Assembly (NCBI GenBank): GCA_049472355.1
Contig: JBLIRP010000060.1
Coordinates: 1 to 25,166 of the forward strand
DNA length: 25,166 bases
Direction: 5' to 3'
Origin: a bacterium
Lineage (GTDB): Bacteria > SZUA-182 > DTGQ01 > JAFGSM01
The position numbers and the translations under genes were made by a program. Below the pieces are notes generated by a model. The model saw nothing but the letters and a program-made list of their open reading frames with translations. It searched no databases and had not been told where the DNA came from. This document shows positions 33 through 21,875 of the stretch, one piece after another; within the stretch, counting starts at the first letter, position 1; each line of letters starts with the position of its first letter.

Positions 33-1961
<1,929 letters not shown>

Positions 1962-2054
1962 ACGCTGCATGCTCCTTTTCGATAGGAAACCCTTTGCCCG
2001 CGGAGAGGGTACCCCCCTACACAACGCCTCACAGGCGGGCAGGGAACGAAGACC

Positions 2055-5000: not shown

Positions 5001-5387
5001 GGGCTTCGCCCACCTGGAGCGCTGGAACCAGGGGTGCTGGTCCGAGGTGTGATTGAGGACCATCTCGGTGATCACCCTGATCCTCCGCTGGTGGGCCTGG
5101 CGGAGGAATTCCCTGAAATCCCGCAATGTGCCGTAGGTAGGGTGCACGCTGAAGTGATCGGCGATGTCGTAGCCGTCGTCCTTGAGGGGGGATGGGTAAA
5201 AGGGGAGAAGCCATATGGCGGTGATCCCCAGGTTCTGGAGATAGTCCAGCCTGGTGATGAGCCCCTTGAAATCGCCGATCCCGTCACCATTGCTGTCGCA
5301 GAACGCCTTCACATGAAGCTCGTAGATGACCGCATCCTTGTACCAGAGGGGGTCGTCCTCTATATATGACCGCTGATTGTGTGCCAT
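2055..5387 (-). CDS. treS: Trehalose synthase (maltose alpha-D-glucosyltransferase) fused to maltokinase (Pep2/Mak), 1110 aa
   Basis: N-terminal GH13 TreS motifs: WYKDAVIYE, DDGYDI, LRLDAVPY, AEANQW, LRNHDELTLE. C-terminal kinase motifs: RWFGGK, EQSNTS, RIHGDYHLGQVL, IIDFEGEP, LRDVAGM. Confidence 0.95.
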   Translation of the reverse strand: MAHNQRSYIEDDPLWYKDAVIYELHVKAFCDSNGDGIGDFKGLITRLDYLQNLGITAIWLLPFYPSPLKDDGYDIADHFSVHPTYGTLRDFREFLRQAHQRRIRVITEMVLNHTSDQHPWFQRSRWAKPGTPWRDFYVWSDTPERYQDARVIFKDFEASNWTWDSVAGAYYWHRFYAHQPDLNYDNPRVQKAMLSVIDFWLGMGVDGLRLDAVPYLFEREGTNCENLPETHTFLKKLRAHVDSRFRNRMLLAEANQWPEDAAVYFGEGNECHMAFNFPVMPRMFMALQMEDRFPIIDILDPPLEIPERCQWAMFLRNHDELTLEMVTDEERDYMYRVYAQDPLTKINLGIRRRLAPLLGNNRNRIEVLNTLLFSLLGTPVIYYGDEIGMGDNYYLGDRDGVRTPFQWSPDRNAGFSTSNPQRLYLPTIIDPEYHYEVVNVENQERNLSSLMWWMRRVIAMRRHFKAFSRGDIRFLSPRNPKVLAFIRRYEEEIILVVLNLSRFSQVVELDLSDCAGLIPQEAFSQNNFPPIRREPYILTLGPHNYFWFVLKGEQEMIRVEREDVLPYLQVQEGIKELAGTEIREKLERHVLPTYLKKSRWFGGKGRTMRSIEILEMAPVARKSHGAPLLLTIRVNYNEGIPETYFIPLSWAGRQEAEVIRRHFHRSIIASMRVGEEEGILYDGAYNRGLHRILFDMIARRKGISAQAGEFVAYPNRGFEGMPRGTAAYTDSSVLGAEQSNTSILYKDNFILKIFRKLHEGAHPDAEITSALTDRARFPHIPAFAGAIEYRQPRGEPTFIGLLQRFVPNQGDAWQFTLDHVHKYLERVLARRGELTDIPRTSGLFDEDLMKAYPFLDELAGAFFAEMVSLLGRRTGELHRALYSLTGDPAFAPEPFSILYQRSVFQSMRSLTRKVFRLLRENLTDLPEDIREEASGLMDAEREILARLARILGKKISAMKIRIHGDYHLGQVLFTGKDFVIIDFEGEPAVPLGERRLKRSPLRDVAGMVRSFHYAAHAGFLRYPLVHQTDAPFLEPWVIVWYHYTSTLFLRSYLDTVRDAPFIPQGGEEFDILFDAFLLQKAVYELGYELNNRPDWVAIPLRGIRAILNGA

Positions 5388-5756
5388 ACCAGTTTTCCCT
5401 GAATTGAACCAGGAATATTGGGAACGAATTTTATACCAGAATTATGCATTAATTGATTGTTTTTTAATTTTTTCATCCTTCAGCACGATCCAAAAAAAAG
5501 TCATGGCGGTTTACAAGAAACATGCTGCATGCAAGGAATCCATTCCCGATTGTATAAGCGGCTTCGGCAAAAGGCAAACGAACCCCCTACTTTTTTATCG
5601 ACAATGGGATGGTTACGATCGCAATGACCCGGGGTATGCATTCTGCGGGTGATTCCTGAACCAATTTTGGCAGGGCTGCTACGCTGTGGTCAAAGCCTAT
5701 CGGGATGTACGGATGCTCATCCTAATGGCATGCCTCGGCCAACGCTCCGGCGCTTT

Positions 5757-6794
5757 TTACTGCTCCTTTGCGGATTCCTTTGCGACCTCGAAGTGCTTCG
5801 ACAACAACCGCTGGGCAGAGGCGCCCTCGATGGCCTTTATGGCGATGTTTTGAACCTGCTTGCCGGCATCGTCCGATTTCTGTGTCAACTGGCGGATATA
5901 CGTCTCCTGTTCTTTGATCTTCGCCTCGAGCCCGGAGACGATCTGCGCATGCAACCGCCTCTCTCCTTCGATCTCCTTGGCCGCGAGGGCCGCCTCGTGA
6001 CGGTACCGTGACTCCAGTTTCTCGGTCACGGATTTCTCCGTGTCCTGGATCGCCTTTTCCATTCTTTCCGGAAACTGGGTGACCGCGGCCTTCATTTCCT
6101 CGTATTCCTTCTCCCGGACGGAAATGGCTGCCTCCCGATCGGAAAGCTCCTTCTCAGCGGCGATCTTCTTTTCGGCAAGCACCTTATCCAGCGCCGCCTT
6201 TTTTGCCTCGTACGCGTCGTTTTCCTTCTTTCTCTTCAACTGGAGGGAATAGGCGTACTCCTCTTCCTCGCGATCCCGCTCCTTTTTAACCCTCGCATCC
6301 CTTTCCTTCACCGCCTGCTCGTGCGCCTCCTGCTCCCTCTTCCATTCCAGCCTCTTCTGCCCCAACTCCGCATCAAGGGCATGCCGCTTCTCATCCATGT
6401 CCTTTGCAAACTGCGCACTCTTCTCCTTCTGTGCCTGAAGGAGAGCGTCGAGGCTGTCCGCATTCACCGTGATATCGTGAATCTCCTGCAGGGTCGTTCG
6501 TCCGATTTCTATGGCCTGCTGCAGGTCCGACAATTTCTTGAACTCGGCAATCAACCGTTCCTCGAGATTGTCCAGGGCCCCCCCGATCTCCAGCTTGATC
6601 TGGGCCAGTCCCTTTACAATCCTCTCCACCGAATGCTGGGATGCCTCCCTGACCAGCCGCTTTTCCTCAACCTGTTTCCTTTCCGCCTGCCGATCCGGGA
6701 CCTGTCCCTTCTGGAGCCTCTCCAACACCTCATGGTATGCCTGCAAAATCTCACTCTTGGTGCTTTTCCCGGAGATCTCCTTTTTCTCTTCCAT
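5757..6794 (-). CDS. Hypothetical long coiled-coil protein (E/K/A/Q/L-rich, about 345 aa)
   Basis: Long ORF with alpha-helical, charged composition and no TM segment or signal peptide. AAGGAG lies 7 nt before the ATG at 6794 (the ORF track starts at 6800). Confidence 0.85.
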   Translation of the reverse strand: MEEKKEISGKSTKSEILQAYHEVLERLQKGQVPDRQAERKQVEEKRLVREASQHSVERIVKGLAQIKLEIGGALDNLEERLIAEFKKLSDLQQAIEIGRTTLQEIHDITVNADSLDALLQAQKEKSAQFAKDMDEKRHALDAELGQKRLEWKREQEAHEQAVKERDARVKKERDREEEEYAYSLQLKRKKENDAYEAKKAALDKVLAEKKIAAEKELSDREAAISVREKEYEEMKAAVTQFPERMEKAIQDTEKSVTEKLESRYRHEAALAAKEIEGERRLHAQIVSGLEAKIKEQETYIRQLTQKSDDAGKQVQNIAIKAIEGASAQRLLSKHFEVAKESAKEQ

Positions 6795-7002
6795 GGTCAT
6801 GCTCCTTTTTGTTCTTCATGAAAAACCAAGGCATTGTTATACGTCTATCGCAGTGATTATGCCTCACCACTGCTCGAATGCATGCACGAGTTTCCTCGAT
6901 AAAAGGCAGAAGGCCGCTCGATTCGATCGCTGCAATCCGGCACGAATAGAAGCTGATACATGAGAATCGAAGACGTCCTTTATGACGGATTACCCCGGCC
7001 AC

Positions 7003-7395
7003 TTACCATATCGTTTCCACATCGCCGAAATCCATAATCCTTCGGTCGGAAGAGACCACAGGTATCCCCAATATCCTTGATGTTGCAACGATGATCTGGT
7101 CTGCAGGGTCTCGATGAAGACCGCGAAGCTGGGTGCTTTCTACAGCGATCTCAGGGGAAAGATCCGCGATACTTATATTGAATTCATTAAGAGAGCGTCG
7201 AATCCATGTGATCAAGGGTATTGAGAAGGATATCCTTTTTTTCTCGACCAGCTTTGCCAATTCCCAGCATGATATGGCAGAGATCCATTTTTGATGTGCC
7301 TTGTTGAGCATCGTCTTTGCCTTATGCGAAAGGGACGCCTCGTTTTGGATGCTTACCCAAATCCAGATATGCGTATCCAGAAGAAGGGCCTTCAC
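7003..7395 (-). CDS. vapC: PIN-domain type II toxin (VapC family)
   Basis: PIN motifs LLDTHIWIW, SAISCWE, HRDPADQIIVAT, VSSD. The GTG start at 7395 overlaps the antitoxin stop (GTGA) and has GGGAGG 7 nt upstream. Confidence 0.9.
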   Translation of the reverse strand: MKALLLDTHIWIWVSIQNEASLSHKAKTMLNKAHQKWISAISCWELAKLVEKKRISFSIPLITWIRRSLNEFNISIADLSPEIAVESTQLRGLHRDPADQIIVATSRILGIPVVSSDRRIMDFGDVETIW

Positions 7396-7616
7396 CTTGT
7401 AACCTCCCATTCATCATCGGCAACAGGAGAGAGTATATCCCCGATGAACGTGACGGTATCCTTGAGCGGGATCTCTTCTTTCTGATTATTCACCGGGATT
7501 ATTTCGGCAATCGGCTCGCCCCGCTTGGTGATGAGCACCCTCTTTTTCTTCATTTTGACATCTTCAAGGACTGAAAGGCAGATGGCCTTGAACTTGGATA
7601 CCGATAATGTCTCCAT
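7392..7616 (-). CDS. Phd/YefM-family antitoxin, 74 aa
   Basis: Phd/YefM N-terminal pattern SVSKFKA...VLITKRGEPIAEIIP, an acidic C-terminus, and translational coupling to the downstream PIN gene. Confidence 0.9.
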   Translation of the reverse strand: METLSVSKFKAICLSVLEDVKMKKKRVLITKRGEPIAEIIPVNNQKEEIPLKDTVTFIGDILSPVADDEWEVTR

Positions 7617-7634
7617 CTTTTGCCCCCCTATTTA

Positions 7635-7662
7635 ATTATGGTCAAATCACTATTACCATAAT
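7635..7662. promoter_or_regulatory. Putative TA autorepression operator (inverted repeat)
   Basis: Perfect 8-bp inverted repeat ATTATGGT-N12-ACCATAAT overlapping the -10 box and predicted start site. Confidence 0.6.
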
Positions 7663-7686
7663 ATCGATTTGCCTTCTCATTGTCAA
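7658..7686 (-). promoter_or_regulatory. sigma70-type promoter of the TA operon
   Basis: The minus strand reads TTGACA-17 nt-TATTAT, ending about 40 nt upstream of the antitoxin ATG. Confidence 0.75.
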
Positions 7687-7794
7687 AGAGCGGCAATTCC
7701 ATTTGGGAGTGCAGCATGGTGAGCAGACATGTTCAGGAGGGATTTAGGGAGGCCTTCTGTAAATTTTCTCTCCCCCCGGGCGAACACCGCTCCC

Positions 7795-9783
7795 TTACAT
7801 GAAGTAGTCGAAATCCGCCTCCCTGCGCAGGCGGTGGTGCACCCTGAATATGTGGGCCGGGACGAGCGAGGGGGAAAGCTCCACGCGATTCGAATCCCCC
7901 TGCCACAGGTACTTGTCGTCGCTGATCAGGTCGGTGACCAGGTAGGGTTGGCCGGGGACGATCCCCAACTCGTCAAGGGGAATCTTGACGGAGCCGGACT
8001 GGGTGTGGAAGGGATCCAGGTTCACGATGACCATGATGATGTTGGACAGGTCCTCGGTGGCCTTGACAAAGGCAAGGAGGTATTCGTTGTCCACCTCGCA
8101 GAACCGGAGGTTCCCGGTGGCCTGCAGGGCACTGTTGTTACGCCGGACCGCGTTGATCCTGGCGATGAAGTCCCGCAGGTTATCCTCCCTCCCCTCCACG
8201 TCCCAGTGCCTCACCTCGTACTTTTCCGAATGGAGATACTCCTCGCGGTCAGCGACCCCCTCGTTGATGGACAGCTCGAAGGGAGGACCGTACAGGCCGT
8301 AGTTGGAGGAGAGAGTCGCGGCCAGCACAAGGCGCACCAGAAAGGCGGACCTGCCGTCGTACTGCAGGAATTCAGGGAGGATATCCGGGGTGTTCGGCCA
8401 GAAGCTGGGACGGAGGTACTCCCGAATCCCGGTGGAGGTGAGCTCGGTAAGGTATGCGGTGATCTCCTGTTTGGTGTTTCTCCAGGTGAAGTAGGTGTAG
8501 GACTGGGTGAACCCGAGCTTGGCGAGGCGGTTCATGACCTTGGGCCGGGTGAAGGCCTCGGCCAGAAAAAGCACATCGGGATGCTGCTGCTTCACCTCGC
8601 TGATAAGCCATTCCCAGAAGCAAAAGGGCTTGGTGTGGGGATTGTCCACGCGGAATATGCGAACCCCCTTTTCGACCCAGAAAAGCACGATCCCCTTCAA
8701 TTCCTCCCACAGGGACTGCCAGTGATCCGTCTCGAAGAAAAAGGGCACGATGTCCTCGTAGCGTTTGGGGGGATTCTCCGCAAACTGGATGGTGCCGTCC
8801 GGCCTCCACAGGAACCACTCCGGGTGCTCCGTAAGGTAGGGGTGGTCGTTTGAGCACTGGAAGGCCAGATCGAGGGCGATCTCGATGCCGTGCCGGCCGG
8901 CCTTTTTGACGAGATCCACGAAATCCTCCATGGTGCCGAGGAGGGGGTGGACGCTGGTATGGCCTCCCTCTTCGTAGCCGATGGCCCAGGGGCTTCCCGG
9001 GTCGTCCGGCCCGGCGGCAGGGGCGTTGTCCCTTCCCTTGCGCTGTGTCCTCCCGATGGGGTGGATGGGGGGCAAGTAGAGCACATCGAACCCCATCCGC
9101 TCCAACTCGGGGAGGAGCCCCTCGCAGTCCTTGAAGGTCCCGTGTCTTCCCGGCTCCGGGGAACAAGACCGGGGAAAGATTTCATACCAGGCGCTGAACA
9201 GGGCCTTCTCCCTGTCCACCACCAGGGGAAGCTCCCGCTCGTATACGGACATGAGCCCCCTGTCCGGATACCGGGCCATCAGCTCGGCAAGCTCCTCACT
9301 CAGACCCGCCGAAACCGCCTGTTCGATATCCTCCCGATTGCTCAGGATAGCGGCGATCTGACGGAGCCGCTCCCTGTCGGCGCTGGTTGCCCGCTCAGCA
9401 GCCGCCTCCACATACCCGGCACCGACCAGGAGCTTCACCCCCACCTCCTGACCCGCATCCCTGGACTTCCTCAGGTCCTTGTGCCAGGTCGCAAACCGGT
9501 CGATCCACCCTCCCACCGCATACAAGTAGAATCCGGGCTCTTCAACGCTGAAGGCGCCTTCCCAGGCGTCGTTTCCCGATGATGTCATGGGTGACTCGCG
9601 CCACTCCTCTTCATCCTCCCTGCGAAAGAGGATGACCGCGGCAACATCGTCGTGTCCGTCCGCAAACACATCCGCACTCACCCTGATCCTCTCGCCTGTC
9701 ACCCGCTTTACGGGAAACCTGCCGCCATCGATCCGTGGGGTGACCCGCTCAATGACCACCCGCCTGCGTCCGTCACGTTCCAT
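7795..9783 (-). CDS. glgE: Alpha-1,4-glucan:maltose-1-phosphate maltosyltransferase
   Basis: Motifs AWYEIFPRS, LYLPPIHPIG, GSPWAIG, ENPPKRYEDI, FRVDNPHTKP, FLAEAFT, NTPDIL. Start set at the ATG at 9783, with AGGAGG 6 nt upstream. Confidence 0.95.
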   Translation of the reverse strand: MERDGRRRVVIERVTPRIDGGRFPVKRVTGERIRVSADVFADGHDDVAAVILFRREDEEEWRESPMTSSGNDAWEGAFSVEEPGFYLYAVGGWIDRFATWHKDLRKSRDAGQEVGVKLLVGAGYVEAAAERATSADRERLRQIAAILSNREDIEQAVSAGLSEELAELMARYPDRGLMSVYERELPLVVDREKALFSAWYEIFPRSCSPEPGRHGTFKDCEGLLPELERMGFDVLYLPPIHPIGRTQRKGRDNAPAAGPDDPGSPWAIGYEEGGHTSVHPLLGTMEDFVDLVKKAGRHGIEIALDLAFQCSNDHPYLTEHPEWFLWRPDGTIQFAENPPKRYEDIVPFFFETDHWQSLWEELKGIVLFWVEKGVRIFRVDNPHTKPFCFWEWLISEVKQQHPDVLFLAEAFTRPKVMNRLAKLGFTQSYTYFTWRNTKQEITAYLTELTSTGIREYLRPSFWPNTPDILPEFLQYDGRSAFLVRLVLAATLSSNYGLYGPPFELSINEGVADREEYLHSEKYEVRHWDVEGREDNLRDFIARINAVRRNNSALQATGNLRFCEVDNEYLLAFVKATEDLSNIIMVIVNLDPFHTQSGSVKIPLDELGIVPGQPYLVTDLISDDKYLWQGDSNRVELSPSLVPAHIFRVHHRLRREADFDYFM

Positions 9784-10189
9784 GCCGTTCCTCCTATTCA
9801 TCGCCTGGTGAGAACGATCGTTCTGAGTCCCCTGCACCTTCCCCGGGACGATGTACATTCCGGGAGGGTCTCGATAATCCGTCCTTCACTGAGCGGTTCG
9901 AATGAAACCGCTCGAGATAGTGTGGATCAATCAATTAAAAATTGTATAAACAGATCGGTCAAAAAGCAACCAACACCCCTGTATCCCCCCTGCAACCGCT
10001 GCGGGTATTCGAATCTCGACACGCACCAGGATTGCTGCTATAGTGCTTCACAACGGCATTGACCCACGCCGCATTCGTCTTCACTCCCCGCCGCAAGCCA
10101 AGGTTATCCCCCGCATACGGAAAATTTTGAAACAGCGGCTGCGAACGGGAAGGAATCGAAACGCCGCGCACAAAGCAAGGACTCCGCAC

Positions 10190-11605
10190 ATGGATACCAG
10201 CAGGACATACAGGACCCGTTTCATCCAGGCCAACAAGGACGAGTACGGCGACCGGTACACAGCCTTGAAATGGGCCTCGGGAAAAGAGGCCCACAGGGCA
10301 GCCGGCCTGAGGCAGGAGATACTGTCTGCCCTGGAGGGATCGGTGCACATCCGATTCAAGGGGACCAAGCCCCATTCGGGAGACCTCTCCCCGGGGTGCG
10401 AGATATGCGGAGATGGCACGTGGTCCTGCCTGTTCATCAACGGAAGGTGCAACTGCCGCTGCTTTTACTGCCCAACCGAGCAGAAGGGGATAAGTGTGCC
10501 CATGACCAACACGGTGCCATTCCCCCGCACCGGTGACTACGTGGACTACATCGGGGCACTCGATTTCAAAGGGGTGAGCATCAGCGGAGGCGAGCCCCTG
10601 GTTACCCTTCCCACCACGCTGAGCTTTATCAGCGCAGTGAAGAAACGGTTTGCAGACACAATTCATGTGTGGCTCTACACGAACGGGACCCTGGCGACAC
10701 AGGATATCCTTGCGCAGCTCAGGGATGCGGGACTGGATGAGATCAGGTTCAACATCGGCGCTTCCGGCTATGACCTCGAACCGGCGAGACTGGCCATGGG
10801 CGCCATCGGGTGCGTCACGGTGGAGATCCCCGCGGTCCCCGAGGATTATGATATCATAAAGGGGAAGCTCCTCGAGATGCAGCAGATCGGGATACACCAC
10901 CTGAACCTTCATCAGTTGCGCCTGACCCCTTACAATTACGAGCACCTTGCACACCGCAACTATACCTTCCTCCACGGGGAGAAGGTGACCGTGCTCGAGT
11001 CGGAATCGGCCGCATTGAACCTCATGCGATATGCCATAGAAAACGCGGTCGGACCTCCAATAAACTACTGCTCCTTTGTGTACAAAAACAGGTTCCAGCG
11101 GGCTGCGGCACGCAGGCGGAGCGCACGCCTTATCCGAAAAGGGCACGAGGAGATCACCGAGAACGGATACCTTCGGACTCTGTGCGTTACGGGCCCGGCG
11201 GATGAGCTCCGGATGCTTTCAGATCGTTTGAGGGCACGGGATGCAAGCGGGACATCCTGGTGCAGGGACACATCGGGAAACAGGCTCTATTTCGGCACAT
11301 CCGTGTGGGGGCATGTATCGTTCGAACGCGTAACCCTCATGATCGGGTACAGCGAGGCCAGGATCCTTCCCTCCCTCTCCTACCGCCACCCCTTTGTCGA
11401 GGTTGCCTTGAACAGGGGAAGAACCATAGCGATCGAAAAGGTACGGGCATGTGAGGAGATGGTGGTGGGGCATGATGAGATCGGCCGTTTTGAGGATCTT
11501 GTGATACGCAATACGGGAGCCCGCGAACCGGGCATCAGGGATGAACGGTGGCGGGTGATCGAGGGTTTTGAATTCCTTGGGGAGGGGCTCCAGGAATATT
11601 ACTGA
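10190..11605 (+). CDS. Radical SAM protein (COG2108-like, function unknown) with C-terminal extension
   Basis: CxxxCxxC motif (CNCRCFYC) preceded by SPGCEIC; also ISGGEPL, LYTNG and GLDEIRFN. Start set at the ATG at 10190 with AAGGA upstream. Confidence 0.88.
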   Translation: MDTSRTYRTRFIQANKDEYGDRYTALKWASGKEAHRAAGLRQEILSALEGSVHIRFKGTKPHSGDLSPGCEICGDGTWSCLFINGRCNCRCFYCPTEQKGISVPMTNTVPFPRTGDYVDYIGALDFKGVSISGGEPLVTLPTTLSFISAVKKRFADTIHVWLYTNGTLATQDILAQLRDAGLDEIRFNIGASGYDLEPARLAMGAIGCVTVEIPAVPEDYDIIKGKLLEMQQIGIHHLNLHQLRLTPYNYEHLAHRNYTFLHGEKVTVLESESAALNLMRYAIENAVGPPINYCSFVYKNRFQRAAARRRSARLIRKGHEEITENGYLRTLCVTGPADELRMLSDRLRARDASGTSWCRDTSGNRLYFGTSVWGHVSFERVTLMIGYSEARILPSLSYRHPFVEVALNRGRTIAIEKVRACEEMVVGHDEIGRFEDLVIRNTGAREPGIRDERWRVIEGFEFLGEGLQEYY

Positions 11606-11608
11606 GCA

Positions 11609-12541
11609 TCATGGCGGTGGCCTGCATGACTGCTGTTCGAGCATCGTGAGGAAATCCTCCGGCAGCGGTGCGCCATAGGCACGTTCAGGCATTCCACCCA
11701 TCTCAGGAAGTGCAATCCGACAGGCGTGGAGCATCAGGCGACCCATGCCCGTTGGAGGTGCTTTCCTCTCATGCCCGCGCAGCGGTCCGTAGAGACGGTC
11801 CCCAAGAATCGGCGCCCCCATGAAGGCCATGTGGATACGTAACTGATGCCTGCGCCCTGTCTCCGGCCACAGACGCACCCACTGTACCCCCTGCGACTCC
11901 CCCGTCACCCGGTAGCGGGTGACGGCCCGAAGCCCCCCTTTTTCCTTTACCGACATCATATCCCGACGCCTGGGATGTGAGCCGATGTAAGCGCTGATGC
12001 GTCCCTCTGGTGCAAGGCGATTAGGCGCAGCCACAACCGCCAAATATTCCCGCCCAACCGTACCCTCCTTGAAGGCAGTATCCAGGAAACGGTTGATCGG
12101 ACCGGGACGGGTGAGGATCACTACACCAGAGGCGTCGCGGTCGAGGCGATGGAAGAGCGAAAGGTCGCCAAACCGCCGGACTGCGAGATCCAGGAGGTTG
12201 CCCGCTCGGGCACCGTGCGTGTCGTGGGAGAGCAAACCCGCAGGCTTGTTGACGGCAATGAGGTCATCCTCCAGGCTAATGATCCAGGCATCATCGAACA
12301 CGCCAGGGGGCGGCACCTTCTCCTCCGGCGACCGGGCAACCTCGATTTCGTCACCGTGTTCCACCATCCAGGAGCAGAGCCAGACCACTCGACCATTGAC
12401 CCTGACACCCCCCGCATTGATCAGCGACCTTACCGCACGTCGCCCCCAATAAGGAAACAGGAGGAGCAAGGCCCGATCGAGCCGGGTTGGCCGCTCGATG
12501 CCGCATATTCGTGTATGAATCCTGCGCATCCCTGTCCCCAT
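11609..12541 (-). CDS. RluA/RluD-family RNA pseudouridine synthase with S4-like N-terminus
   Basis: Motifs RLDRAL, VNKPAGL, HRLDRDASG (catalytic Asp), TGRRHQLRIH, ILGDRLYG, LHA. The start could be 12529. Confidence 0.92.
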   Translation of the reverse strand: MGTGMRRIHTRICGIERPTRLDRALLLLFPYWGRRAVRSLINAGGVRVNGRVVWLCSWMVEHGDEIEVARSPEEKVPPPGVFDDAWIISLEDDLIAVNKPAGLLSHDTHGARAGNLLDLAVRRFGDLSLFHRLDRDASGVVILTRPGPINRFLDTAFKEGTVGREYLAVVAAPNRLAPEGRISAYIGSHPRRRDMMSVKEKGGLRAVTRYRVTGESQGVQWVRLWPETGRRHQLRIHMAFMGAPILGDRLYGPLRGHERKAPPTGMGRLMLHACRIALPEMGGMPERAYGAPLPEDFLTMLEQQSCRPPP

Positions 12542-12660
12542 CTTTCAAAATGAATACCTTCTTTCGCCATCATTGATCCATCCTGCGGCAGGGATTCTAT
12601 CACCAGGCCGGTTGCGTGTAAAACACGTGATCTCACCTTTTTTGAATTTTTCATATATCG

Positions 12661-12678
12661 ATTTCGAAATTTTTCTAA
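12661..12678. promoter_or_regulatory. Putative upstream activator site (enhancer) for a sigma54 activator
   Basis: ATTTCGAAATTTTTCTAA is 16/18 identical to 18381-18398; both start about 100 nt upstream of a -24/-12 site. Confidence 0.55.
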
Positions 12679-12760
12679 ACATTGTGCCACAGGCGTTGTA
12701 GCTGAAGCTGGAAAAACCTTCTATTACAGGCAGTTATGTTATCATGGATATCCCTCTGTG

Positions 12761-12777
12761 CTGGCATACAAGTTGCT
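12761..12777 (+). promoter_or_regulatory. sigma54 (RpoN) -24/-12 promoter upstream of repeat-protein gene 1
   Basis: CTGGCATACAAGTTGCT matches TGGCA..GG-N10-GC with TTGCT at -12; it is intergenic and correctly oriented. Confidence 0.7.
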
Positions 12778-13073
12778 CTTTGTAATTCTCGAGACGTGAA
12801 TGTGTGACAGGTTGTTACAGGGGAGTTTTTTATAAGTTACGTTTTTCCGTAGTATGCCATTTAATAACCTCCTTTTATATCCCAATTCGAAACAGCCTGT
12901 CCCCCGAAAACCATAATCGACCGGAACCATACTTCGCTTTATGCAAACAACCTTCAGGGCCTTTAGGCATCATGTGGGCCGAAAGAAAGGAGGAGGATAG
13001 CAGGAGACACTGTGCTGAATCTGTTCTCATAGAACCCTTCGTCAGACAAGGTTAAAAAAGGAGGTTAGCGAGC

Positions 13074-13550
13074 ATGAAAAGGAAAGGGATTGAGATACTT
13101 GCAATACTTATTCTTATCGCCGCCGTTGCCCTCTGCCTTGCGCCCCGTGTAAACGCCTATTACGGCGGGCTCTATGGCGGCCTCTTAGGTGGCTATGGCG
13201 GCCTCTACGGGGGGCTGTATGGCGGCCTCTTAGGTGGCTACGGGCTTATGGGCGGCCTCTACGGCGGGCTTTATGGCATGTATGGCGGCCTCTACGGGGG
13301 CATGTACGGCATGTACAGCCCGTTCAGTTTTGCGAACCTTTACTATCCGGTGCAAACAGCAGGAGGGCTGACCTATCAGGTGCCATTCCTCCAGATCGCT
13401 CCGCTGCTCGGTGTTGCCGGTCTGTACAATCAGCTCTTCCCGAACCTGTTTAATCCCCAGCCCCAACCTGTGCCGATCGTCAATGTATCAACCCCGGCTA
13501 CCCTGGGCGTGACATTCCCGACACCGGTGGGTACTTTCTCGATAACGTGA
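13074..13550 (+). CDS. Secreted Gly/Tyr/Leu-rich (YGGL-repeat) protein 1 with Pro/Thr-rich hydrophobic C-terminal domain, 158 aa
   Basis: Strong SD AAGGAGGT at 13058-13065. 28-aa Sec-type signal (KRK, hydrophobic core, VNA|YY). YGGL-type repeats occupy residues 29-80. A terminator follows. Confidence 0.88.
   Translation: MKRKGIEILAILILIAAVALCLAPRVNAYYGGLYGGLLGGYGGLYGGLYGGLLGGYGLMGGLYGGLYGMYGGLYGGMYGMYSPFSFANLYYPVQTAGGLTYQVPFLQIAPLLGVAGLYNQLFPNLFNPQPQPVPIVNVSTPATLGVTFPTPVGTFSIT
13158..13313 (+). repeat. Degenerate coding tandem repeat (12-bp YGGL and 21-bp YGGLLGG/YGGLYGM units)
   Basis: Recurrent TAYGGNGGNCTN units with synonymous third-position variation. Confidence 0.85.
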
Positions 13551-13561
13551 TGAAACATGGT

Positions 13562-13610
13562 TTCAGCAGGGAGGCTCGGGGATTTCCCGGCCTTCCTGCT
13601 GAACCTTTTT
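13562..13610 (+). terminator. Intrinsic terminator after repeat-protein gene 1
   Basis: Long stem TTCAGCAGGGAGGCTCGGG / CCCGGCCTTCCTGCTGAA followed by CCTTTTT, starting 11 nt after the stop codon. Confidence 0.8.
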
Positions 13611-13717
13611 GGTAGGTGGCAGCGTGTGGAGAACATCCCTGCCGCAGGCAACGGATGCATTTTCATCCTGAGCCCGGCAAAACACGGCCGCTTTTGTCAA
13701 AACCATGTATGAAAAAA

Positions 13718-13731
13718 TCGAAATTTTGCGA
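13718..13731. promoter_or_regulatory. Further copy of the palindromic box, upstream of repeat-protein gene 2
   Basis: TCGAAATTTTGCGA fits the TMGMAA-WW-TTKCKA consensus shared with 12664-12677, 18361-18374 and 18384-18397. Confidence 0.4.
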
Positions 13732-14029
13732 AATTTCCTGCAATAGAGTCTGTTTTTTACTATAAGCATACTAACATACTGAATTTATAGGAAGGAGGAC
13801 GCAATCGACCCACACCGGCTGCCTGCTCGAATTTCGACCGTGCGACACTTATGGCACATATCACAATCGAACATCCATTTCGCACCCCACGTAAAGAATC
13901 ATTGTTGGGATGTATGAAAGGGGGCGAATAGAACGATCAAAAAACTTTCACCGCTATCATCATTCTCTGAAGGTTTGATAGTGTAACGAGTTTGTTCAAT
14001 CACCAGGTTTTTGAAGGAGGTTAGGACCA

Positions 14030-14407
14030 ATGAGTAAGAAAGGGCTAGTTCTTTCAATCAGCTTAGTGCTCGTCATCGCCCTGTGCGTTGTTTTTGTCGG
14101 TCAGGCGAATGCCTATTACAGCGGCTACTACGGCGGACTCTACGGCGGACTCTATGGCATGTACGGCGGACTCATGGGCATGTACGGCGGACTCATGGGC
14201 ATGTACGGCGGACTGTACGGCATGTACGGTGGACTGTACGGCATGTACGGTGGACTCATGGGCATGTACGGCGGACTGTACGGCATGTACGGCGGACTCA
14301 TGGGCATGTACGGTGGCCTGTACGGTATGTACGGCGGACTCATGGGCATGTACGGTGGCCTGTACGGCATGTATGGCGGGCTCTACGGAATGTACGGAAT
14401 ATACTGA
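14030..14407 (+). CDS. Secreted Gly/Tyr/Met/Leu heptad-repeat protein 2, 125 aa
   Basis: SD AAGGAGGT at 14014-14021. 28-aa Sec-type signal (KK, hydrophobic core, ANA|YY). The mature part is YYSGY-YGGL-(YGGL[Y/M]GM)x12-YGIY. A terminator follows. Confidence 0.88.
   Translation: MSKKGLVLSISLVLVIALCVVFVGQANAYYSGYYGGLYGGLYGMYGGLMGMYGGLMGMYGGLYGMYGGLYGMYGGLMGMYGGLYGMYGGLMGMYGGLYGMYGGLMGMYGGLYGMYGGLYGMYGIY
14141..14392 (+). repeat. 12 x 21-bp coding tandem repeat encoding YGGL(Y/M)GM
   Basis: Units such as TACGGCGGACTCATGGGCATG and TACGGCGGACTGTACGGCATG; 7 Tyr-type and 5 Met-type units with no spacers. Confidence 0.95.
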
Positions 14408-14460
14408 TCAGGGATGTGGTAAGGCCTCACCCGGTCACAAGCACACCAGTTGATAGATGG

Positions 14461-14564: not shown

Positions 14565-14581
14565 CTGGCATTATTATTGCT
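14565..14581 (+). promoter_or_regulatory. sigma54 -24/-12 promoter upstream of the HK-NtrC operon
   Basis: CTGGCATTATTATTGCT: GG-N10-GC with TGGCA and TTGCT. Confidence 0.7.
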
Positions 14582-14638: not shown

Positions 14639-14751
14639 TGGAATAGGACCATCATCGTTTCAGGAGGCTGGAGACATCATAAATGGTATGTTACATGATA
14701 ATAGTGCGGCATGCCTCAGTGAAAGCGGTGATGTAAATCCTGGAGACACAC

Positions 14752-16914
14752 ATGAGACGAAGTATTAGCCGGCTCCTTTCATTCCTCGCAGGATCCGCAG
14801 TATTCTGCATCCTCTTCGGCATCCAGGATATCATCATCGGTCACCCTCCTATTATCGTGCGATACTATTCCTTCCCTTTCGTGATCGGCGGCTTCCTGGG
14901 GCTTATCTTCTTTATATGGCGCATAAAGCTCAAGGAAAGCAGAGGACGGACTGCCCGTCTCAATCTCATGCTGCGTATCATACAAAACGTGGACAAGCTC
15001 CTGGTCAAGGAGGGGGACCGCGAAAGGCTCATCCAGGGCATCTGCAATACCCTGGTCGAAAACAAGGGATATTACCTCACTGCCTGGATCGTTTTGCTGG
15101 GGCCATCGGGGGGGCTCGTTACCACTGCCGAGGCTGGTTGGGGTGAAGACTTCCTCTCCCTCTCTCTATGCGAAGAAATGAAGTCCATCCGACTTCCCCC
15201 TTGCATCAAACGGGCACTCTCAAAATCGGAGGTGGTATTCATTGACACCCCTGCCCTCGCCTGTCCTGAATGCCCCCTTGCTTCCCAATACCCTGACAGG
15301 GGGGTCATGACCGTGCGATTGGAGCACGGGGGAAAGATCTATGGGGCGCTGTCGGTATCGATTGCCAAGCATTTTATGGCCGACGAAAGGGACCAGGGAC
15401 TCATCGAAGAGGTGGCGGGAGATATCGCCTTCGCCCTCCACAGCATCGAGCTGTCCGAGGACCGGAAGCGGAAGGATAGGGAACTGCAGATCATCTTGGA
15501 TGCGGTGCCTGCCATGGTGTTCTACAAGGATACGGAAAACCGGATCGTGCGGGTCAACGATTCCTTTGTCAGGGCAACCGGGCTATCACGAAAAGAGATC
15601 ATCGAAAAATCCTGTTTCCATCTCTTCCCCGGCCAGGGTGACGATTTCTGGAGGGACGACCGTGAGGTCATGGAGACCGGCTGCCCGAAACGGAACATCA
15701 CCGAACAAATGGCTACAGCGCAAGGGCTGCGTTGGTTTGAAACGGATAAGATCCCCTACCGGGATGACCAGGGAAACATCATCGGGATAATCGGCTTCTC
15801 CATCGACATCACCGAGAAAAGAGAGGCACAGGAAGCGCTCCGGAAGAGCGAGAAGAGATTCCGCGACCTGGTTGAAAATTCATTGATCGGCATCGCCATT
15901 ATCCAGGAAAACAGGATCATTTACCGGAACCCTGAATATGAGAGGATCTTCGGGCCTGAATCCGTGCTGTTTCATTCCATGGATCTTTGCGGCATCCATC
16001 CCGAGGATGTGGAAAGGGTCAGATCGGATTTCTCCCGGTTGACCTCGGGGGAGGCGCAAAACATCTCACTCGACTTCCGGTTTTATCCACAGGAAGGGCA
16101 CATCATGAAATGGGTGTCCTGCCGAACGACCATGACCGAATACCAGGGGAAGGAGGCGATACTCCTCAACATAATGGACATTTCCAGGGCCAAGGAGCTT
16201 GAGAATCTCCTGAGGGTTCAGGACAAGATGACGTCGCTTGGCCGCGTGGCCGCAGGGATCGCCCATGAGATACGTAACCCCCTCTCGGGCATCAACATAT
16301 ATCTGAACACCCTGGAGAAGATCTATGAAAAGGGGGAAGGCTCGGAAAAGGTGAAGCGGATCATCAGCCAGATCCAGTCGGCATCGGGAAAGATCGAATC
16401 CGTTATACGGAGGGTCATGGATTTCTCACGGCCGTCCACGCCGAAGCTCCTCCTGACGGATATCAATCACCCGGTCGAAGAGGCCCTCGGCCTGGCATCA
16501 ACCTCCCTGCAAAAAATGGGGATAACACTGCAAAAGGACCTTGCAGCCAACCTGCCTCCCTGCCTCATCGACAGCCACCTGATAGAGGAGGTGATCCTGA
16601 ACCTGGTCACCAATGCCTCTGATGCCCTGAAGCATATGGAAGGAGAAAAAAGGATCCGCATCGCTTCATCCATGCAGAAGGGCTGCATCATACTCACTAT
16701 TTCCGATTCGGGCCTCGGCATCCCTCCCCATGTGCAGGGAAGGATCTTCGATCCCTTTTATACCACCAAGACCGGAAGCACGGGAATCGGGCTGAGCATC
16801 TGTCACCGCATCATCACGGACCATGGGGGAAGCCTCCATCTGGGCACAAGCGAGTGGGGCGGGGCCGAATTCAGGATCGAGATCCCGCTCGCCGGGGGAG
16901 AGTGCACGGGATGA
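14752..16914 (+). CDS. Membrane-anchored sensor histidine kinase (2 TM-GAF-PAS-PAS-HisKA-HATPase), NtrB-like
   Basis: Two N-terminal hydrophobic helices, a GAF-like region and PAS/PAC ends (SIDITE, IMDIS). H-box AHEIRNPL, N-box NLVTNA, DSGLGI, FDPFYTTK, GIGLSI. Confidence 0.93.
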   Translation: MRRSISRLLSFLAGSAVFCILFGIQDIIIGHPPIIVRYYSFPFVIGGFLGLIFFIWRIKLKESRGRTARLNLMLRIIQNVDKLLVKEGDRERLIQGICNTLVENKGYYLTAWIVLLGPSGGLVTTAEAGWGEDFLSLSLCEEMKSIRLPPCIKRALSKSEVVFIDTPALACPECPLASQYPDRGVMTVRLEHGGKIYGALSVSIAKHFMADERDQGLIEEVAGDIAFALHSIELSEDRKRKDRELQIILDAVPAMVFYKDTENRIVRVNDSFVRATGLSRKEIIEKSCFHLFPGQGDDFWRDDREVMETGCPKRNITEQMATAQGLRWFETDKIPYRDDQGNIIGIIGFSIDITEKREAQEALRKSEKRFRDLVENSLIGIAIIQENRIIYRNPEYERIFGPESVLFHSMDLCGIHPEDVERVRSDFSRLTSGEAQNISLDFRFYPQEGHIMKWVSCRTTMTEYQGKEAILLNIMDISRAKELENLLRVQDKMTSLGRVAAGIAHEIRNPLSGINIYLNTLEKIYEKGEGSEKVKRIISQIQSASGKIESVIRRVMDFSRPSTPKLLLTDINHPVEEALGLASTSLQKMGITLQKDLAANLPPCLIDSHLIEEVILNLVTNASDALKHMEGEKRIRIASSMQKGCIILTISDSGLGIPPHVQGRIFDPFYTTKTGSTGIGLSICHRIITDHGGSLHLGTSEWGGAEFRIEIPLAGGECTG

Positions 16915-18308
16915 TCTCATATCTCATTTACATCGTCGATGATGAAGAGACCATCCGGGAGGGGATCACCATGGCCCTGGAACCGGAGTATCAGGTGAAG
17001 TCATTCCCCACTGCCGAATCGGCCATCAAGGCGATCAGGTCTACTCCACCCGATCTGATGCTGCTCGATATCGGGCTGCCGGGAATGGACGGCATCGAGG
17101 CCCTCCGCCATATCAGGGACATCGATCCGGAAATCCTGGTGATCATGATCACGGCATACGAGGACATCACCACCGTCATCACCGCCATGAAGCAGGGGGC
17201 CCGCGATTATGTGATAAAACCGATCAACATGGACGGCCTCGAGATGATCATCCGCAACTGTCTCGAGGCCATCCAGTTGCGGAAAGAGGTCCGGTCGCTC
17301 CAGGAGCACTATCTGAGGGAGACCATCCCCTTCTTTACCGGCACCAGCAACGTCATGCAGGAGGTGATGGAATTTATCGAGATGGTGGCCAGGAGCGCGG
17401 ACACCCCCATCCTCATCATCGGGGAGACCGGCACCGGCAAGGAGCTTATCGCCGGCGCCATCCATTACCGGAGCCCCAACTTCAACGGGCCCCTGATAAC
17501 GGTGAATTGTGCATCCATTCACAAGGAGCTCATCGAAAGCGAGCTCTTCGGGTATGAACAGGGGGCATTCACCGGGGCGAGGGCATCGGGGAAAAGGGGG
17601 CTGATCGAGGAGGCGAAAAACGGGACCCTGTTTCTCGACGAGGTGGGAGACCTGAGTCTCGAGGCCCAGGCAAAGCTGCTCAGGTTTCTCGAGGTGGGGG
17701 AATTCTATCATATCGGCGGCACCGAAAAACTCACGGTAAAAACCCGGATAGTCTCGGCAACCAATAAGGACCTGGATGCAATGATTGAAAACGGCATGTT
17801 TCGCAAGGACCTCTATTTCCGCCTTGGGGTCATAAAGGTCGAGGTACCCTCCCTGAACGAACGTCCGGAGGATATCATCCCCCTGGCCAAGCACTTCCTG
17901 GTGGAGTTCAGTAAAAAGTTCGGCAAGACCTTTACAGGGTTCTCTCCCCAGGCTGAAGCCGTTCTGACCAGTCATCGGTGGACGGGTAATGTTCGCGAAC
18001 TGAGAAACTTCATCGAGCGTGGGGTGCTCATAGGTAAGGGGCCGGAATTGATGCCCCAGGACCTGGGCATCAAGGAGTCGGGCACACGAGGGCAACGCAG
18101 CGGCGGCCGAGTGGATCTCCCGTGCACCTTCCCTCCCATCCCCCCCCACGGCATGGACCTCTCCGTCGGGCTGCAGGCACTTGAACGATTCTATATCGAA
18201 GAGGCGCTCAGAATGGCCGGGGGGAATGAATGCAAGGCCGCGCGGCTCCTCAACATCAACCATCATACCTTTCGCTATCGCAGGAAAAGGCTGAAGATCA
18301 GGGGATGA
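16911..18308 (+). CDS. sigma54-dependent NtrC/Fis-family response regulator (REC-AAA+-HTH)
   Basis: REC (IVDDE, LLDIGLPGMDG, ITA, IKP), Walker A GETGTGKE, ESELFG, GAFTGA, FLDEVGD, WTGNVREL, and a C-terminal HTH. The ATG at 16911 overlaps the HK stop (ATGA). Confidence 0.95.
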   Translation: MISYLIYIVDDEETIREGITMALEPEYQVKSFPTAESAIKAIRSTPPDLMLLDIGLPGMDGIEALRHIRDIDPEILVIMITAYEDITTVITAMKQGARDYVIKPINMDGLEMIIRNCLEAIQLRKEVRSLQEHYLRETIPFFTGTSNVMQEVMEFIEMVARSADTPILIIGETGTGKELIAGAIHYRSPNFNGPLITVNCASIHKELIESELFGYEQGAFTGARASGKRGLIEEAKNGTLFLDEVGDLSLEAQAKLLRFLEVGEFYHIGGTEKLTVKTRIVSATNKDLDAMIENGMFRKDLYFRLGVIKVEVPSLNERPEDIIPLAKHFLVEFSKKFGKTFTGFSPQAEAVLTSHRWTGNVRELRNFIERGVLIGKGPELMPQDLGIKESGTRGQRSGGRVDLPCTFPPIPPHGMDLSVGLQALERFYIEEALRMAGGNECKAARLLNINHHTFRYRRKRLKIRG

Positions 18309-20672: not shown

Positions 20673-21875
20673 CTATGCGTCAAGCAAGGACTGGTACAGA
20701 TCGAAGGTCTTTTGTGCGATCGCCTTCCAACTGAAAATCTCTTCCGCGCGCCTGCGCCCCTTTTGCCCCATCTGCCTGCACCTATCGGGATCGGCTATCA
20801 GACGGTTGACGGCATCCGCGAGGTGTTTGGACAACTGCAGGTTATCGGATGACGGGCCGGCACAGGCATGATCCGGCTCCACCAGGAGCCCCGTCTCTCC
20901 GGGAATGACCACCTCCTTGATCCCGCCCACCGCGGTTGCTACCACCGGGGTCCCGCACGCCATGGCCTCCAGGTTGATGATGCCGAAGGGCTCGTAGATG
21001 GAAGGACAGCAAAAAACGGCCGCATGGGAGTAGAGCCCCACGATCGTCCTCTTGTCCACCATCTCCTGTATCCAGACGACATTGTCCCGCATCCCCCGCA
21101 TCGCTGCAACACCCCGTTCCATCTCCTCGGCGATCTCCCTGGTGTCAGGGGCGCCCGCGCACAGCACCACCTGTACGGAGGAATCGAGGTACGGGATGGC
21201 ATTGACCAGATGCATGATCCCCTTCTGCCGGGTTATCCTCCCCACGAAGAGCACGTAGGGCTTATGCGGGTCAATGCCGAAGCGCTCCAGGGAATCCGGA
21301 GAGCAGGTCCGGCAGTACTCCTCGACGTCGATCCCGTTATAAATCACATGGACCCGTTCCTCGGGCACGCGAAAATGGGTGAGCACATCCTTCCTGGTCT
21401 CCTCGGACACGGCGATCACCGCATCGGCCATCTCGATTGCGGTCCTTTCCACCCAGCAGGAAAAATCATAGGCCCGTCCAAGCTGCTCCCGTTTCCACGG
21501 GCGAAGCGGCTCCAGCGAATGGATGGTAATCACCAGGGGAACGCCGTAGTGAAGCCTTGCCAGGATGCCCGCCAGATGGGTATACCAGGTGTGGCAGTGG
21601 ACGATCCGGGCATCGATGTCCTGTGCAGTGAAGGAAACGCTCCGGCAGCAGGCGGCCAGCGAACTCCTGATCTGCCGCGGGCAGGTTGCGAACAATCGCT
21701 CATCGATCCCGAAACCGTTGACCTTCAGGTTCCCGTTGTCTGTCTCTTGGTTCCCGAAACACCGAACCTCCACCGGGGTGAGCCGAGAGATCTCGCGGAC
21801 GAGGTATTCCACGTGGACCCCCGCCCCTCCATACACATGGGGAGGGTATTCATTGGTAAGCATCAGTACCTTCAT
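20673..21875 (-). CDS. glgM: GT4 glycosyltransferase, actinobacterial-type GlgA/GlgM (alpha-maltose-1-phosphate synthase / 'glycogen synthase')
   Basis: Motifs TNEYPPHVYGGAGVHV, HCHTWY, HSLEPLRPWKREQLG, VGRITRQKG, PSIYEPFGIINLEAMAC. Confidence 0.85.
   Translation of the reverse strand: MKVLMLTNEYPPHVYGGAGVHVEYLVREISRLTPVEVRCFGNQETDNGNLKVNGFGIDERLFATCPRQIRSSLAACCRSVSFTAQDIDARIVHCHTWYTHLAGILARLHYGVPLVITIHSLEPLRPWKREQLGRAYDFSCWVERTAIEMADAVIAVSEETRKDVLTHFRVPEERVHVIYNGIDVEEYCRTCSPDSLERFGIDPHKPYVLFVGRITRQKGIMHLVNAIPYLDSSVQVVLCAGAPDTREIAEEMERGVAAMRGMRDNVVWIQEMVDKRTIVGLYSHAAVFCCPSIYEPFGIINLEAMACGTPVVATAVGGIKEVVIPGETGLLVEPDHACAGPSSDNLQLSKHLADAVNRLIADPDRCRQMGQKGRRRAEEIFSWKAIAQKTFDLYQSLLDA

Follow-up and report, generated by a model that had tools for sequence, protein, structure and literature searches.

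A predicted exported glycine- and tyrosine-rich heptad-repeat protein, a candidate subunit of a self-assembling coat in an uncultured bacterium

The window, a stretch of 25,166 nucleotides from contig JBLIRP010000060.1 (assembly GCA_049472355.1), carries an open reading frame (ORF) of 125 amino acids, P0001, flanked by a Shine-Dalgarno-like sequence and a terminator-like hairpin (Table 1). Cleavage after residue 28 would leave a mature chain of 97 residues (40 Gly, 25 Tyr, 17 Met, 13 Leu, one Ser and one Ile) with a mass of 10.3 kDa, to which Tyr contributes 40%, Met 22% and sulfur 5.3%. Charged residues, Cys and Pro are absent, as are Ala, Val, Thr, His, Gln and Asn. The repeat comprises 12 exact YGGL[YM]GM units placed end to end, and Tandem Repeats Finder (TRF) returned a period of 21, 12.2 copies and a score of 297. 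The export signal was assigned from n-, h- and c-region heuristics (a K/K n-region, a 15-residue hydropathy of 3.2, an A-x-A motif and no lipobox), as were all signal-peptide calls reported here for P0001 and its family. The preliminary description of an exported 97-residue chain of 12 heptads with this composition was confirmed exactly, export being predicted by the heuristic signal peptide. Its expectation that tryptic proteomics would miss the protein also holds, as the mature chain contains neither Lys nor Arg.

Overlapping alternative frames are also open across the repeat, as expected of repeat DNA. Variation among the 12 units is limited to third codon positions and a single Y/M codon, and the P0001 frame, rather than the open alternatives, was therefore taken to be the gene. 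The ortholog in a relative genome (G001) also encodes 125 amino acids and shares the signal peptide and both ends, with the units re-ordered. Compared position by position, a procedure under which units may have been shuffled, the two genes differ at 34 codons, of which 26 differences are silent, seven are Y/M swaps at the variable position and one is an L/M change; in the signal peptide there are three silent changes and no replacements. The ortholog in a second relative (G004) is 111 amino acids long and keeps both the heptad and the YGIY end. The frame is thus conserved in relatives, and the codon comparison indicates that it is under purifying selection. The possibility that P0001 is an artefact or a wrong frame was ruled out by the two orthologs and the codon pattern. 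The heptad DNA pattern was present in all five genomes of the genus and in none of 15 other genomes of the class, so the exact heptad is genus-specific. The 350 nt 3' of P0001 are nearly identical in G001 (two differences), and the upstream spacer is ~85% identical.

Table 1. Positions of the features described. Unprefixed positions refer to the window; C-numbers are contigs of the source genome (G000) and L-numbers are loci.
Feature	Position	Strand	Basis or remark
Sigma54-type -24/-12 motif upstream of P0002	12762..12777	+	Motif match
P0002, upstream paralog, 158 aa	13074..13550	+	Has a signal peptide and a Gly/Tyr tract; C-terminal segment conserved and uncharged
Strong terminator-like hairpin and U-run 3' of P0002	13559..13610	+	-37.2 kcal/mol, z -6.2, 0/200 shuffles as good
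Shine-Dalgarno-like AAGGAGG, 9 nt before ATG	14014..14020	+	Sequence; identical in G001
P0001, heptad-repeat protein gene	14030..14407	+	ORF; orthologs in relative genomes G001 and G004; RNA contigs
Predicted Sec/SPase I signal peptide, 28 aa, A-N-A|Y-Y	14030..14113	+	Heuristic
12 tandem YGGL[Y/M]GM heptads	14141..14392	+	Gly at b, c, f; Tyr/Leu/Met at a, d, e, g
Terminator-like hairpin and U-run 3' of P0001	14459..14500	+	-17.9 kcal/mol, z -2.2; identical in G001
SPFH/Band 7-radical SAM-SPASM fusion, splicease-like enzyme and cytoplasmic precursor(s)	G000:C83:6407-10080 (L052; L030)		Orthologous loci L033-L045
Second splicease-like enzyme	G000:C91:21671-25657 (L031)		Flanked by a secreted Pro/aromatic protein and by an ORF that resembles the precursors and has their leader
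Multiheme cytochromes	C92:11987-21760; C67:29575 and 34714; C136:3232 and 8466; C80:7981		G000

P0001 is preceded by a paralog, P0002, whose codons 83-159 differ from those of G001 by 11 silent and two replacement changes. A sigma54-type motif was found upstream of P0002 and none upstream of P0001 itself. Across the family, such motifs precede 12 of 59 genes, where length-matched intergenic regions would predict 3.9. In three runs the RNA contigs begin at 12948-12952, which is 160 nt past the transcript start expected from sigma54, and the motif at P0002 is therefore a candidate promoter only. A further sigma54-type motif (14566-14581) precedes genes for a GAF/PAS histidine kinase and a sigma54-dependent response regulator (14752-18308); as these two genes do not adjoin the G004 ortholog of P0001, they were left out of the P0001 system. 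Similar AT-rich, partly palindromic elements lie at 13719-13737 and at about 12665-12685, about 307 and 405 nt upstream of the P0001 and P0002 genes, and on sequence grounds may be regulator sites; a gapped-word search upstream of the family genes returned AT-rich words only. The surroundings also hold a Phd/YefM-PIN type II toxin-antitoxin pair (7003-7616, minus strand), glycogen genes read from the sequence as GlgB-, TreS/maltokinase-, GlgE- and GlgM-like (33-9858 and 20673-21875, minus strand), and a radical SAM gene (10043-11605) with no splicease-level match. Divergent from the G004 ortholog lies a gene for what we take, from a sequence motif, to be a PEP-CTERM-like protein (L028:2343-3194, minus strand).

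Four of the 20 sequencing runs listed are RNA runs, from sediment, soil and aquaculture samples, and all four contained contigs on P0001 or P0002, between about 12950 (where P0002 cover starts) and 14456. Contigs of exact identity, from runs of two studies, cover 13148-13397, 13535-14029, 14038-14173, 14338-14404 and 14375-14456, and a third study yielded contigs of close relatives on the same stretch. The runs had been selected with the P0001 stretch and the data are contigs, so expression cannot be ranked. The four runs held no contigs on 9301-11400, 12001-12900 or 14701-16200, where missing contig cover proves nothing.

The nearest named RpoB sequences (Schekmanbacteria, Nitrospirota) are 63-65% identical to that of the host, and sequences of the host come from marine and mangrove sediment samples. 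Its genome (G000; 3.49 Mb, 87.5% complete) gave five secretin and four Omp85 matches; the organism is a diderm, and the corresponding export routes are present. COX1 was found in none of 20 genomes of the class, and motifs that we take to be those of acetyl-CoA synthase, Hdr and NiFe-hydrogenase occur in the host, which, judged from its genes, is likely anaerobic. Very large multiheme cytochromes are encoded, with 60, 49, 28, 26, 25 and 24 CxxCH motifs.

P0001 and P0002 belong to a large, order-wide family, a finding that goes beyond the preliminary description. ORFs with Gly/Tyr tracts numbered 44 in G000 by a strict scan and 70 by a looser one, and 61 of the 70 carry a heuristic signal peptide. 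The tracts total 5416 residues, of which Gly makes up 42%, Tyr 20%, Leu 12% and Met 6%, with Asp, Glu, Lys and Arg together below 1%. Their layout throughout the family is one of single or paired large residues separated by single or paired glycines. No Lys or Arg occurs past residue 35 in 15 of the 61 members, and W, F or Y is the last residue in 23 of the 61, compared with about 9% genome-wide. Among the 494 signal-bearing proteins of the 2415 called genes, a further 48 exported proteins are less than 9% charged, and 23 of these constitute one Pro/aromatic family. Tandem arrays (C82:3676-10787, C116:57289-59818, C27:5589-7419 and others) hold at least 23 secreted and nearly uncharged paralogs of the Pro/aromatic type, and some relatives join the Pro/aromatic domain to an avidin-like barrel. 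Matches to P0002 were found in all 12 other genomes of the order (three families), in none of seven other genomes of the class and in none of 21 distant genomes, the relatives compared being kin rather than independent samples.

Eleven paralogs share a folded C-terminal domain that was modelled as an eight-stranded barrel (pLDDT 91). It occurs in all 13 order genomes, in two to 38 copies, and in none of the seven others in the class; as a marker it reproduces the split seen with P0002, free of low-complexity bias. A search of 1.84 billion representatives gave 102 matches to the barrel, 74 of them long, of which 67 are less than 10% charged and 35 have a Gly/Tyr tract; some barrel relatives carry the Pro/aromatic domain, which links the two families. 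The barrel had no sequence match in Pfam or the PDB. Its fold resembles streptavidin (TM 0.68, E 2e-3), and VIA gave Z scores of 11-13.7 for avidins, designed barrels and OmpA-type barrels, but eight-stranded barrels are common and no function follows. Pfam cargo domains were recognized in eight of ten fused members scanned, namely chagasin (I42, three times), Kazal, alpha-2-macroglobulin (A2M), subtilase (S8, twice) and Cthe_2159; the avidin-like barrel is a further fusion partner of the Gly/Tyr tracts. One paralog (C82:24308-24619; L077) has a Met-free mature chain consisting almost only of YGGL repeats and ending in GGWW, and it constitutes a natural control for the heptad protein.

P0001 is a member of no family tested: neither it nor P0002 matched Pfam at E 0.1, and P0001 matched no NCBIfam family. 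At E 1e-3 it has 32 homologs, all unnamed or hypothetical and mostly with the same signal-then-YYG start. The exact sequence was absent from a collection of 15 billion, a metagenome scan gave 132 pattern matches of which tblastn confirmed none, and degenerate repeat patterns found nothing in metagenome and viral contigs. The ESM Atlas contains P0001, with no feature match and only low-score structure rows. One database protein (P0005) joins the signal peptide and first repeats of P0001 to an unrelated domain, and is either a fusion or an assembly chimera. Literature searches turned up no description of the Gly/Tyr family, which is not proof of its absence from print.

The conformation of the repeat was examined through its glycine spacing. 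The glycine period of P0001 is 3.53, eight-fold over shuffles, and on a helix wheel the glycines fall at 103, 154 and 206 degrees, placing all Gly on one face, with a GxxxG stripe, and Tyr, Leu and Met on the other. Five AlphaFold2 models, built on a shallow alignment of seven repeats (pTM 0.41), had pLDDT values of 86, 65, 55, 51 and 49; the best is one long helix and the other four disagree. The ESM Atlas model is unconfident (pLDDT 0.48), and a Foldseek search with the helix model found no match. A glycine content of 41% disfavours a helix in water. Among 50 family proteins, the glycine period peaks at 85-110 degrees in 15 (shuffled mean 10.5, maximum 18), at 111-135 degrees, near period 3, in 19 and at 150 degrees or more in eight; these mixed periods imply that no single fold covers the family. 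For assembled P0001 a kinked, beta-rich gel is the foremost candidate, at somewhat under an even chance. A two-faced helix, with a glycine-zipper face and a Tyr/Leu/Met face and packing into tapes, is only slightly less likely, and an amorphous coacervate is rather unlikely. GxxxG motifs promote the side-to-side packing of transmembrane helices and cross-alpha fibrils exist, according to the available portion of PMC7814010. The preliminary description had proposed self-assembly by cross-beta structure or phase separation; self-assembly survives as the most plausible reading, and cross-beta structure has an alternative in a glycine-zipper helix, which the 3.5-residue glycine period fits.

Because LYG and MYG are natural tyramine-splicease sites, such enzymes were sought in G000. 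A radical SAM/SPASM enzyme on C83 matched TIGR04103 (290 bits), TIGR03913 (248) and AhbD (169), the first two being the top two of 73 families, although both scores are far under the curated cut-offs (725 and 592). It mostly sits behind a fusion of an SPFH domain to radical SAM, which is present in 11 of the 13 order genomes; outside the order only the SPFH part was found. Orthologs of the C83 enzyme (67-97% identity) occur in nine of 12 other order genomes and none of seven outside, giving splicease-like enzymes in ten of 13 and making the operon order-specific, and 17 proteins matched at 66% identity or more before a gap to 53%. The operons each encode one or more cytoplasmic precursors in which a conserved leader at the N-terminus is joined by several hydrophobic-YG-V/I sites. 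In 16 precursor sequences, some of them truncated duplicates, V or I follows YG at 49 of 71 sites, compared with 20 of 968 in secreted proteins and one of 21 in P0001. On C83 1-13000, three of the runs gave no more than short RNA pieces of depth 2-4 for the precursor and radical SAM genes, and the fourth gave more pieces from a close relative; ATP synthase pieces in the control for this region came mostly from other organisms. By sequence, the operon is a candidate new type of spliceotide system. The tables or supplements of Scott et al. 2022 (Chem 8:2659) may already list this splicease clade. The second splicease-like enzyme, on C91, lies near a Kazal-repeat protein with a Gly/Tyr tail. A more distant radical SAM protein (48% identity) is encoded at L046 (G004:C70:25924-29976) with a short repeat precursor bearing YG and YA sites, and neighbours read from the sequence as ATP-grasp-like make this locus a possible spliceotide-graspetide hybrid.

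It is highly improbable that the splicease-like enzymes of the order act in trans on the LYG and MYG sites of P0001, with the resulting alpha-keto-beta-amides cross-linking a coat or inhibiting proteases. The sites themselves invite the idea: X is Met or Leu at 20 of the 21 XYG sites of P0001 (11 MYGG, seven LYGM, one LYGG and one MYGI), L-Y-G and M-Y-G are spliced by tyramine spliceases in the published text available (PMC10533398, PMC9811515, PMC11626197, PMC10849128, PMC11414181), and the natural PlpXY sites given there are MYG and LYG (PMC10533398). The order-specific C83 enzyme has the right best-matching families, its partner is fused to a membrane SPFH domain, and spliceases can work without a leader on the substrate (PMC11414181, in part). 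It is just as doubtful that the membrane SPFH-radical SAM fusion and its partner splice hundreds of LYG/MYG sites as exported chains reach the membrane. Both TIGR scores are far below cut-off, and the enzyme has its own adjacent cytoplasmic precursors with a V/I context. P0001 shares repeated LYG/MYG sites, and a splicease-like enzyme in the genome, with spliceotide precursors such as PlpA, RhaA, RcsA and RasA (accessible parts of PMC11414181, PMC11626197, PMC10533398), but it has a signal peptide instead of a RiPP leader, its YG is followed by G or M where the published splice tags in the text available run on with L/V and P (PMC10533398), and it is not beside a splicease gene, the splicease-like genes of C83 and C91 lying with other precursors. 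Moreover, in one order genome (G008, 96% complete) 14 P0002-like matches and 19 barrels were found without either the splicease-like enzyme or the fusion, and GGLY also occurs in squid proteins (PMC11931252), for which no such enzyme is known. Trans-splicing, if true, would offer an oxygen-independent means of cross-linking a coat or shielding it from proteases, and the coat would be the first case of tyramine splicing producing a structural material; the order-specific operon with its SPFH fusion is in any case a separate lead.

Three other accounts were weighed. In one, P0001 coats a periplasmic storage inclusion of sulfur, polysulfide or mineral in the manner of the sulfur globule proteins SgpA/B/C of Allochromatium vinosum (PF17228), which are, in the text available, very hydrophobic, Sec-exported, keratin-like structural proteins of 11-13 kDa (PMC10386293). 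P0001 resembles them in size, lack of charge and sulfur content, and in being a small, hydrophobic, low-complexity chain behind a heuristic Sec signal, and the multiheme cytochromes (up to 60 CxxCH) and sediment habitat of the host would suit such a role. Against this, P0001 lacks the Pro and Trp of those proteins, neither P0001 nor P0002 matched PF17228 or any other Pfam family at E 0.1 (a genome-wide search for PF17228 was also empty, as was its control), and known globule formers have one to six sgp genes (PMC10386293, in part) where about 60 family genes occur here. The host is without rDsr, Sox and FccB: DsrA over cut-off and the FccB domain were each found in none of 20 genomes and SoxB over cut-off in none of five, Sqr being judged by sequence motifs only. 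The sulfur association suggested in the preliminary description was not upheld by these searches; the protease-inhibitor and macroglobulin fusions are more in keeping with an exposed layer, and an inclusion coat is unlikely. Insertion of glycine-zipper helices into, or onto, a membrane, as an outer-membrane stiffener, vesicle coat or membrane-active peptide, is quite unlikely. Each heptad contributes to a GxxxGxxxG pattern, the best model is a continuous helix and many family members end in an aromatic residue, but the highest 19-residue hydropathy of mature P0001 is only 0.73, Tyr recurs every three to four residues over 84 residues, periods of 3 or 2 instead of 3.5 are common among the paralogs, and no immunity or exporter gene adjoins P0001. 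The remaining account gives P0001 a primarily chemical role, with its Met and Tyr taking up oxidants or soft metals, or with dityrosine cross-links making it into a shell, and is very unlikely. Its abundance of Tyr and Met is in keeping with this, as are an MsrA/MsrB-like ORF and a catalase motif, both presumed from sequence motifs, and the peroxidase-linking of suckerin Tyr in vitro. However, the gene set is anaerobic and oxidative cross-linkers are sporadic, with heme peroxidase in one of 20 class genomes, multicopper oxidase in two of 13 order genomes, DyP in none of five and cytochrome c peroxidase in one of five, and none of them in G000; with COX1 also missing, dityrosine cross-linking, raised in the preliminary description, found no backing. 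Nor did a Met-based metal or oxidant role, as Met makes up little of the family tracts, is absent from the YGGL-only C82 paralog and swaps with Tyr between strains, and mature P0001 has neither His nor Cys.

The reading that is favoured, at better than even confidence, is that P0001 is a non-covalently self-assembling subunit of an extracytoplasmic coat or matrix, in which bulk repeats form the material and fused tracts tag cargo; it concerns an uncultured organism known here from genes and predictions. Sec would export P0001, and cleavage at A-N-A|Y would free a 10-kDa uncharged chain in which pairs of Tyr, Leu and Met may act as stickers and Gly or Gly-Gly as spacers, a layout that would cause the chain to leave solution once outside the membrane. 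P0001 and about 60 paralogous Gly/Tyr tracts would then assemble, without enzymatic cross-links, into the coat or matrix of the order, either in the periplasm or at the cell surface. Pure-repeat members such as P0001 would supply the bulk material, and in the fused members the tract would be a tag holding protease inhibitors, proteases and binding domains in it. The earlier view that the protein is not an enzyme is supported.

Exported or extracellular self-assembling repeat proteins include curli, chaplins and rodlins, silkmoth chorion and the high-glycine-tyrosine hair proteins, the chorion and hair proteins having a Gly/Tyr/Leu bias. P0001 differs from curli in lacking Gln/Asn amyloid ladders and has no sequence family match; full-length CsgG was not found in G000, where the only matches spanned 55-60 positions inside frames of 720-740 amino acids. 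The M2 modules of squid suckerins offer a likeness: they are uncharged, Gly/Tyr/Leu-rich tracts of GGLY, GGY and GYG units, encoded by a multigene family and assembling through Tyr, and GGLY occurs at eight places in P0001. In the available text of PMC11931252, M2 units are GYG, GGY and GGLY, M2 peptides form hydrogels and peroxidase treatment in vitro can cross-link the Tyr of suckerins. Unlike suckerins, P0001 is without M1 crystalline modules of Ala/Val/Thr/Ser/His or flanking Pro, is Met-rich, follows a strict heptad and has a bacterial Sec signal, and the tracts of its family are fused to cargo. The likeness would be one of convergence and not homology. In the way it works, P0001 would come closest to suckerin M2 modules and Sgp-type structural proteins, though it belongs to neither group.

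The reading of a bacterial coat built in modules, akin to suckerins and displaying cargo through sticky tags, is novel and probably the right one. The whole uncultured order spends about 100 genes per genome on nearly uncharged exported proteins, which are unnamed in the family libraries and would for the most part escape tryptic proteomics. P0001, with 97 residues, four amino acids and one heptad, is the cleanest test piece among them. If the coat reading is true, bacteria would have their own equivalent of the Gly/Tyr materials of squid and insects. It would come with a built-in tag for the display of enzymes and protease inhibitors, and its simple repeats (YGGL, YGGLYGM, GLY), which differ in period, would make up a natural library.
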